Of a stretch of 64,000 bases of DNA, positions 61,380 through 61,690 are shown one piece after another. The notes beneath the pieces are model-generated. The model made no database searches and had not been told where the DNA came from. It saw only the letters and a list, made by a program, of their open reading frames with translations. The translations under genes were made by a program, and so were the position numbers. The stretch lies in NCBI RefSeq assembly GCF_013315695.1, contig NZ_CP054353.1; one strand, 5' to 3'. The stretch is from Escherichia coli (GTDB taxonomy: Bacteria; Pseudomonadota; Gammaproteobacteria; Enterobacterales; Enterobacteriaceae). Numbering within the stretch: position 1 is the stretch's first letter; every line of letters starts with the position of its first letter.

Positions 61380-61690
61380 TGGCCTCTTTGCTCGGTGATA
61401 GAAATAGCTCACCATCCAGAGTTGAGAATCTCGGGGTGGCGAGACGTACAGGGTTCTCAACACCGGAGAGCAAAGAATCCGGCCCGACCGAAGTCGGCCC
61501 CGTACGTCCCGCCATAATTCTGACGCGAAAAAGACGTGGCAATACAGTACGCACAAAAAAACCGCTGGCGCGGTTATGCGCTTTGCTCTGTATCGGGTTG
61601 AGAATCCCGGCACCCGTTTTATGAGGTGCAGCGGAAATGTAACCTGACCGATTGCGGCATGGCAAGCGGTTTTTTTGTGTGTGCATGTTC
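61380..61690. other. Structured 310-bp intergenic region with three GTTGAGAATC motifs and several hairpins
   Basis: gttgagaatc at 61411 and 61587, inverted copy ggttctcaac at 61442; hairpins ggcccgac-cgaa-gtcggccc and accgc-tgg-cgcggt; T-run after gcaagcgg at about 61655. Confidence 0.4.

Follow-up and report, generated by a model that had tools for sequence, protein, structure and literature searches.

A noncoding gap in the early operon of a P2-like Escherichia coli prophage very likely encodes an IsrK-C4-type antisense RNA immunity module

In satellite phage P4, the CI RNA is processed from a leader and pairs with seqA and seqC, which leads to premature termination of the operon that contains the replication genes, and IsrK has been recognized as a structural homologue of SeqA (PMC4825925). 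Barquist et al. speak of an "IsrK-C4 immunity system" in P4 and point out that P1, P7, N15, and lambdoid prophages have systems of similar structure (PMC3632133). In P1 and P7, the c4 RNA blocks the ribosome-binding site of the ant mRNA and, through its loop sequences, forms the basis of heteroimmunity (PMC12197685). In the Salmonella prophage Gifsy-1 (IsrK - STnc1160/orf45 - anrP), both a short terminated RNA and a read-through transcript occur, with a stable processed RNA reported downstream, and the output is an antirepressor (PMC4825925). The immunity region of P4 is arranged as a PLE leader with seqA, the CI RNA (seqB), and seqC; kil/eta, epsilon, and alpha come next. The helper derepression protein, epsilon, is encoded downstream of cI in the same operon. 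For P1 and P7, the loops of c4, their targets, and the occlusion of the ribosome-binding site were reportedly described by Citron and Schuster in 1990 and by Biere et al. in 1992; Biere, Citron, and Schuster are also said to have found, in 1992, that the translational block of icd results in Rho-dependent termination before ant. This class of module is well known and curated in Rfam (P1 c4, P4 CI, N15 CA, and Gifsy-1 IsrK), and the locus described here is a clear member of it.

The window analyzed here, i.e., the whole 64-kb stretch of DNA, consists of E. coli-type chromosomal DNA followed by a prophage; the whole-window Rfam gathering scan also placed a Phe leader at 27409-27533. The prophage encodes major head/capsid, scaffold, large terminase, portal, tape measure, tail, and tail-fibre proteins, and its gene content indicates that it is a complete P2-like (P88/Xuanwuvirus-type), helper-type myovirus. 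DNA searches grouped it with phage P88 and the genus Xuanwuvirus (Peduoviridae), with 88-92% identity across the query. The corresponding small minus-strand genes of an annotated relative constitute the early operon; a cox-family gene is located upstream of this operon, and the genes for an HTH repressor and an integrase are divergent to it. Given this layout and the phage genes, the gap that concerns us (61376-61697) is located in a complete P2-like phage, within its early operon. This gap is noncoding and separates a 99-aa ORF (61997..61698) from a 76-aa ORF (61375..61145), both on the minus strand. The gap had been pointed out in a first-pass annotation of this DNA, and it is real: there is no credible ORF between the stop of the 99-aa ORF at 61698 and the start of the 76-aa ORF at 61375.

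Our analysis indicates, with a probability that we put at roughly 0.88, that this gap encodes a minus-strand antisense RNA immunity module of the IsrK-C4 type (P4 seqA/CI/seqC; P1/P7 c4). By analogy with the described systems, the module probably keeps the derepression and replication genes of the prophage off. An Rfam scan of positions 60500-62800 revealed two matches above the curated thresholds, and a gathering scan of the whole window confirmed both. These matches are adjacent, lie on the minus strand, and are full length: C4 (RF01695) at 61432..61519, which reaches 79.1 bits where the gathering threshold is 45 (E = 2.8e-15, model positions 1-87 of 87), and isrK (RF01394) at 61555..61629, with 62.8 bits and a threshold of 50. 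The first-pass annotation had named a regulatory RNA among several options for the gap and had stated that nothing in it matched a feature with a name. The former suggestion is borne out by the two families and by the finding that the repeated motif consists of RNA-RNA pairing elements, whereas the latter no longer stands, as the feature can be named as the IsrK-C4 (P4 seqA/CI/seqC; P1/P7 c4) immunity system.

The isrK match covers an IsrK/SeqA-like leader RNA, whose first base lies 7 nt beyond the end of a predicted minus-strand promoter (61636..61676). This promoter comprises an A7 tract (61676-61670), a -35 hexamer TTGCCA (61665-61660), an 18-nt spacer, and a -10 hexamer TACATT (61641-61636). 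A consensus scan classified it as sigma-70-like (9 of 12 consensus matches), and it is kept in 43 of 43 variants of the locus, even in those with a differing upstream flank. Based on the consensus and its position, transcription is predicted to start near 61629. The leader segment folds into hairpin 1 (61629-61610), hairpin 2 (61609-61594), and an intrinsic terminator (61575-61555) that the terminator scan reported as AACCGCGCCAGCGGTT followed by T7, all on the minus strand (-24.5 kcal/mol, z = -2.54). Features of the isrK family, i.e., two 5' hairpins and a Rho-independent terminator, are present together with a score above the gathering value, and the leader helices are 99-100% paired across 33 variants.

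The strand of the terminator had been read differently in the first-pass annotation, which described a terminator-like stem with a T-run on the plus strand. That sequence exists (~61646-61676), but as a specific structure we rejected it, with a z of -0.08 against shuffles for the plus-strand fold of 61632-61690 and no report from the terminator scan; the clear intrinsic terminator is the minus-strand one. The plus-strand T-run is the A7 tract just upstream of the minus-strand -35, and the stem overlaps that predicted hexamer. The same annotation had counted two stable hairpins, which are present but too few, as the minus-strand RNA contains the two leader hairpins, the terminator hairpin, and a three-helix C4 fold. 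We also considered a second promoter-like match at 61542-61514 (TTGCCA-17-AATTAT) as a promoter for the C4 RNA and rejected it: its -35 is not conserved (TCGCCA in many variants), and its start would fall inside the C4 closing stem. Inspection by eye for a LexA box found a half-site only, TACTGTAT near 61545.

The minimum-energy fold of the C4 segment is the Rfam consensus (-48.2 kcal/mol, z = -4.58). In this fold, a closing stem of 16 bp (61513-61498 with 61453-61438) encloses a UUCG-capped hairpin (61497-61484) and a further hairpin (61483-61462), all on the minus strand; across the 33 variants, these three helices are 100% paired, with compensatory changes at 4 of the pairs. The third hairpin presents, in its 12-nt loop, an element that we call a' (CUUUGCUCU, 61475-61467), and an unpaired stretch 3' of this hairpin contains a second one, b' (GUUGAGAA, 61461-61454). 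Both are complementary to one upstream and one downstream site on the same strand. The upstream target of b' is b1 (UUCUCAAC, 61604-61597) in the loop of leader hairpin 2, and its downstream target is b2 (UUCUCAAC, 61428-61421), just past the C4 RNA. The upstream target of a' is a1 (AGAGCAAAG, 61589-61581) in the single-stranded spacer before the terminator, and its downstream target is a2 (GAGCAAAGA, 61393-61385). The Shine-Dalgarno sequence of the 76-aa gene, AAGAGG (61388-61383), is located 8 nt upstream of the ATG (start codon 61375-61373) and is overlapped by a2. The overlap of a2 with the Shine-Dalgarno sequence holds in 33 of 33 variants.

Only the b elements had been noticed before, as a repeated motif: b1 corresponds to its copy at 61597-61606, b2 to that at 61421-61430, and b' to the inverted copy at 61452-61461, while the a triplet (AGAGCAAAG, CUUUGCUCU, GAGCAAAGA) is a second set that follows the same logic. 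Two direct copies and one inverted copy of GTTGAGAATC had been claimed. The plus strand indeed contains two exact copies at the above positions, but the inverted copy reads GTTGAGAACC and has one mismatch. Allowing up to one mismatch, the motif occurs 3 times in the 64-kb window, where 3.97 occurrences are expected, and at least 3 were obtained in 77 of 100 shuffles; the motif count by itself is not significant at the scale of the window. What is nonrandom is the clustering of the three copies within 186 nt and their joint change across relatives.

The strength of the pairing was assessed from the matches and duplex energies. Watson-Crick matches extend over 8 bp between b' and each of b1 and b2, 9 bp between a' and a1, and 9-10 bp between a' and a2, with energies of -12.5 (a'/a1), -14.3 (a'/a2), -9.8 (b'/b1), and -10.3 kcal/mol (b'/b2). 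Mismatched combinations of elements gave duplexes of only -1.9 to -5.2 kcal/mol, and the cognate energy was the best in every row for a and in most rows for b.

Relatives of the locus provided a comparison set. A scan of viral contigs with the 76-aa protein gave 80 loci that encode it at 91-100% identity, and the 331 nt upstream of the gene are 82-99.7% identical among them, with 43 distinct sequences; 33 distinct variants from these 80 loci made up the co-variation alignment. The differences among relatives are concentrated in the a and b elements, and the three copies of each element change in concert. The b types found (b1/b'/b2) include UUUCCAC/GUGGAAA/UUUCCAC, UUUCGCAG/CUGCGAA/UUUCGCAG, UUGAGAC/GUCUCAA/UUGAGAC, UUGCAACC/GGUUGCAA/UUGCAACC, and UUGGAAC/GUUCCAA/UUGGAAC, and examples of a types are CAAACGAAG/CUUCGUUUG, CUACACAAG/CUUGUGUAG, CAACUACAG/CUGUAGUUG, and CUAACAGAG/CUCUGUUAG. 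In total, we counted 6 b types, 10 a types, and 14 combinations.

Pairing is maintained through these changes. For the upstream targets (b1/b' plus a1/a'), 95.9% of the alignment cells are paired, compared to 67.0% after shuffling, and 10 of 17 pairs have changed on both sides; the covariation score is 0.675 versus 0.121 in shuffles (reached in 0 of 500), and slid controls gave at most 0.18. The downstream targets (a'/a2 plus b'/b2) behave alike, with 94.3% of cells paired versus 67.5%, 9 of 17 pairs changed on both sides, a score of 0.658 versus 0.140 (again 0 of 500 shuffles), and slid controls of at most 0.19. For the intramolecular helices, the corresponding values are 98.3% versus 97.1%, 5 of 43 pairs, and 0.105 versus 0.079, with slid controls of at most 0.053. 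Considered individually, the a1/a' helix is 100% paired, with double changes at 6 of its 9 pairs, and the a2/a' helix is 97% paired, with double changes at 5 of 9. Variants of the same type, own targets included, share Watson-Crick runs with a mean of ~7.3 nt for b and ~9 nt for a, compared to 3.3-4.4 nt between variants of different types. The shuffle control overstates independence because the aligned sequences are closely related (82-99.7% identical); more weight falls on the slid controls and on how many distinct pair types each column contains. In both target sets, several intermolecular positions have G-U pairs; their tolerance fits RNA pairing on the minus strand rather than identical DNA sites.

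The first gene downstream of the module, on the minus strand at 61145..61375, encodes the 76-aa protein, which matches the Pfam family PF25738 (Derepression) with E = 1.7e-7. BLASTP aligned it to P4 epsilon at 33% identity over 51 aa (E = 4e-9), P4 epsilon itself matches PF25738 at 1e-50, and relatives of the 76-aa protein are annotated as "derepression protein." This small basic neighbor, which the first-pass annotation had proposed for DNA-binding assays along with the wHTH protein, is a homologue of the epsilon-type derepression protein, and nothing that we saw indicates that it binds DNA. It could be an antirepressor of the phage's own repressor. In a tblastn search of deposited phages, it was found in nine records only, all of them P88-like/Xuanwuvirus. 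Further along the minus strand are a 129-aa ORF (61072..60683; PHROG 3237) and a 957-aa P2 gpA-type replication endonuclease/nickase (60713..57840; PHROG 91, "nicking at origin of replication," E = 3e-275). Relatives keep the gene order of 76-aa gene, 129-aa ORF, and gpA, and the latter two are presumed to belong to the same transcription unit and to be co-regulated. NCBIfam returned zero families for the 76-, 99-, and 129-aa proteins and for gpA.

Among the described systems, P4 resembles the locus in several respects. Its immunity region scored 74.9 bits for C4, 60.8 for isrK, and 44.1 for c4-a1b1 in Rfam, and the C4 and isrK families are adjacent and in the same order as in the window. The elements are also in the same order, namely b1, a1, a hairpin with a U-run, a', b', b2, and a2 on the Shine-Dalgarno sequence: in P4, GUGAGAA and UUCACAGG occur in the leader, ahead of a hairpin with a U-run; CCUGUGAA and UUCUCAC are part of the CI RNA; and GUGAGAA and UUCACAGGAGG, the latter on a Shine-Dalgarno sequence, are located downstream. 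In addition, promoter-like hexamers (TTGCCT...TATAGT) lie upstream of seqA at the same distance from the first hairpin, and by their position we take them to be PLE. In both cases, an epsilon-family derepression gene and a replication gene are found downstream. On the other hand, P4 is a satellite, whereas the module described here is carried by a complete P2-like myovirus of the helper type; the replication gene encodes the alpha primase in P4 and a gpA-type nickase here; in P4, the Shine-Dalgarno sequence covered by a2 is that of a small ORF preceding epsilon, but in the window it belongs to the epsilon-like gene itself; and the a and b sequences are unlike. We found no similarity between the 129-aa ORF and P4 orf151. 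By blastn, the RNA in the window is nearer to the copies in N15 and Stx phages (~71% identity) than to that in P4, which blastn missed.

The same RNA pair, in the same architecture, was found in N15, in an Stx2 phage with "isrK" and "C4 antisense RNA" annotated in its record, and in a Citrobacter Xuanwuvirus; in N15 and the Stx2 phage, it lies upstream of antirepressor-type or unnamed genes. The N15 anti-immunity locus (CA RNA - antirepressor operon) has isrK and C4 matches in the same arrangement, with a terminator annotated at the equivalent place. It also has the b specificity of the window (b' UGUUGAGAA with targets UUCUCAAC), but it differs in its a specificity (CUUCUUGUA) and in its downstream genes, gp31 and an Ant-type antirepressor. 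The immI operon of P1/P7 (c4 - icd - ant) shares the C4 RNA family and two short loop sequences that pair with upstream a1/b1 and downstream a2/b2 of one transcript, and there the ribosome-binding site of the first ORF is occluded and specificity differences lead to heteroimmunity (PMC12197685). As in P1, the module would constitute a second immunity layer beside a protein repressor. The two differ in that an epsilon-type gene rather than icd/ant follows the module here, that the phage family is different, and that a strong intrinsic terminator separates a1 from the C4 RNA here. Gifsy-1 shares the isrK family with the locus, but its short RNA is reported to activate translation, its output feeds the antiterminator AntQ, and the prophage is lambdoid. 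The early region of P2 contained neither C4 nor isrK matches, and the module is therefore not a general P2 feature.

Taking P4, P1, and Gifsy-1 as homologous models, we propose the following sequence of events. Transcription would start near 61629 from the internal promoter (61665-61636), as its consensus and position suggest, and most transcripts would end at the terminator (61575-61555), yielding an IsrK/SeqA-like RNA of ~75 nt that displays b1 and a1. Read-through transcripts would carry the 88-nt C4/CI-like RNA (61519-61432), which RNase P and 3' trimming may excise as in the homologous systems. With a' in a hairpin loop and b' in the adjoining unpaired stretch, the C4 RNA could then pair with a2 and b2. 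The a'/a2 pairing, helped by b'/b2, would occlude the Shine-Dalgarno sequence and block translation of the epsilon-like gene, and the loss of transcription-translation coupling may cause premature Rho-dependent termination, if P1 and P4 can be extrapolated to this phage. With translation blocked and transcription ended prematurely, the derepression protein, the 129-aa ORF, and the gpA nickase would stay off, not only in the lysogen but also in a same-type phage that superinfects it. The upstream sites a1/b1 may either help C4 to terminate the leader, as in the P4 model, or titrate C4, as in the IsrK model. The variable a and b sequences would set the immunity specificities.

Some of the data also suit an activator of the Gifsy-1 IsrK type, in which the cis-paired read-through transcript is silent and the short RNA with a1/b1 binds a'/b' in trans as an anti-antisense; the Shine-Dalgarno sequence would thereby be freed, the derepression protein switched on, and the prophage induced. 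Indeed, in the minimum-energy fold of the 270-nt whole leader, a'/b' pair in cis with a2/b2, the Shine-Dalgarno sequence is buried, and the C4 closing stem is opened, so that regulation could be partly in cis, as proposed for Gifsy-1 IsrK. The isrK match has its own terminator, and a1/b1 are as complementary to a'/b' as a2/b2 are. In Gifsy-1, induction requires the short IsrK, which activates translation of the read-through transcript (PMC4825925). However, the pairing published for Gifsy-1, in which IsrK and the 3' end of orf45 form helix b-I, differs from the a/b loop scheme, and the net effect in P4, P1, and N15 is repression. We regard activation as a genuine possibility toward which the balance does not tip, and it is compatible with the repressor reading.

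Two further explanations dispense with antisense RNA, and we consider both highly improbable. The 10-mers might act as DNA and serve as iterons, operators, or origin repeats, options that the first-pass annotation had also listed; a phage protein, for instance the wHTH protein or the small basic neighbor, would then bind them. The presence of two direct copies and an inverted one within 186 bp, beside DNA-binding-like genes, would suit such an element, and binding sites that co-evolve with their protein would likewise change together. However, it is their complementarity to the middle copy that is conserved, and this extends to G-U pairs, which would count as mismatches if DNA sites were compared; the repeats are not conserved as identical double-stranded DNA sites. 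All copies lie in loops or single-stranded parts of a conserved RNA fold that matches curated families, the second triplet behaves alike with one member on the Shine-Dalgarno sequence, and the origin of P2 is annotated inside gene A. Moreover, as the a/b types vary among loci whose 76-aa protein is 91-100% identical, this protein is unlikely to be the specificity partner. The stretch might otherwise be protein-coding, with a 205-aa ORF (frame open from 61686) that encodes an "Ash family" protein. This ORF has a weak match to Pfam Phage_ASH (PF10554, E = 0.005), PGAP labels the homologous stretch "similar to ash family protein," and the frame is open in most variants. Yet it overlaps the well-supported 76-aa gene in a different frame, and 9 of 43 variants are defective (6 without a start codon and 3 with stops or frameshifts); on these grounds, together with the E value, we rejected membership in PF10554. 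Several more long ORFs cross this G+C-rich stretch on both strands, and RNA pairing accounts for the substitution pattern. In P4, the ORF on which Phage_ASH is anchored (E = 8e-16) is the obsolete "cI protein" ORF over the CI RNA, and the immunity factor of P4 is an RNA (PMC4825925).

Since Rfam recognizes the class, assigning the gap to an IsrK-C4-type module mainly turns an unnamed feature into a named one. A limited search of the literature found no description of such a module in P2-like phages/Peduoviridae, and its presence in a helper-type P2-like phage is of modest value, directly upstream of a P4-epsilon homologue and a replication nickase. The 80 related loci amount to a natural experiment, in which three-way co-variation shows many immunity specificities recombining in modules. 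The finding also bears on annotation: standard annotation leaves the RNA genes unmarked here and shows a degenerate "Ash family" protein in their place, so that surveys of satellites and prophages can be misled.

A broader idea is, in our opinion, doubtful as it stands. Helpers of the P88/Xuanwuvirus group might carry the RNA-immunity-plus-epsilon cassette of satellite P4 as a second, hypervariable immunity layer (at least 6 b and at least 10 a types, freely recombined), in which an RNA would gate the phage's own derepression protein and gpA independently of the C repressor, possibly mediating cross-immunity or conflict among co-resident helpers, satellites, and unrelated prophages; the b type of the window is shared by N15. 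If this were true, the cassette would have been exchanged between satellites and helpers, and the epsilon-type antirepressor would not be an invention of satellites. As to its distribution in the host species, a match to the locus was found in 1292 of 5426 complete E. coli genomes, i.e., about a quarter.

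Among the 80 related loci found through the 76-aa epsilon-like protein, homology starts abruptly at CACAAAAAAACCGCTTGCC (window position ~61680), directly upstream of the predicted promoter. Beyond this point the flanks are of no fewer than five unrelated kinds (seen upstream of position ~2200 in L021, L028, L037, L052, L057, and L070, among others), and a Citrobacter phage carries an additional gene there. The RNA module and the genes downstream of it act as a cassette whose left boundary is fixed.

The antisense RNA of phage N15 (L003, 2500-2725, minus strand) has a b specificity identical to that of the P2-like prophage (b' UGUUGAGAA, targets UUCUCAAC), whereas its a element differs. 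This comparison suggests that unrelated phage families have specificity modules in common. In a further locus, L017 (IMGVR_UViG_2582580934_000004), a 17-nt insertion at ~270-305 gives the C4-like RNA tandem a' hairpins (n = 2). The window type (AUUCUUUGCUCU) is represented by one hairpin, and the type found in locus L080 (GUUCUUGUGUAG) by the other; the a1 and a2 targets of L017 are of the L080 type only. This variant may have arisen by recombination, or its C4-like RNA may have dual specificity.

A further sequence resembling a promoter (TTGCCA-17-AATTAT; 61514-61542, minus strand) separates the leader terminator from the C4 stem. Its -35 hexamer is not conserved, and the AAUUAU adjoining the C4 stem is invariant; this AAUUAU may be part of a processing site rather than of a promoter.

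The Pfam family PF10554 (Phage_ASH) matches a frame overlying the CI/C4 RNA gene, both in the window (61426-61686, minus strand; E = 0.005) and in satellite phage P4, where the frame is the "cI protein" ORF (L084, 8168-8584, minus strand; E = 8e-16). The observation also covers locus L001 (5327-5587). The true epsilon proteins are members of PF25738 in Pfam. PGAP annotates the stretch that holds the RNA as "similar to ash family protein," and a satellite survey used PF10554 as its epsilon marker (PMC8628076). Therefore, PF10554 may represent the translation of an RNA gene.

Elsewhere in the window, a gene for a ParM-like partition ATPase (56804-57763, minus strand; PHROG 691, E = 1e-90) comes after gpA in the P2-like prophage, and the next small ORF downstream belongs to the same observation. 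At the same place, a relative carries genes annotated as "plasmid segregation protein ParM" and "plasmid partitioning/stability family protein." This arrangement hints at a P2-like prophage with a plasmid-like maintenance option. Rfam matches above threshold were also obtained for the Phe leader (27409-27533, plus strand), ES036 (CssrF; 3495-3537, minus strand), and STnc540 (31229-31373, plus strand), the last of these near the start of the prophage tail genes.
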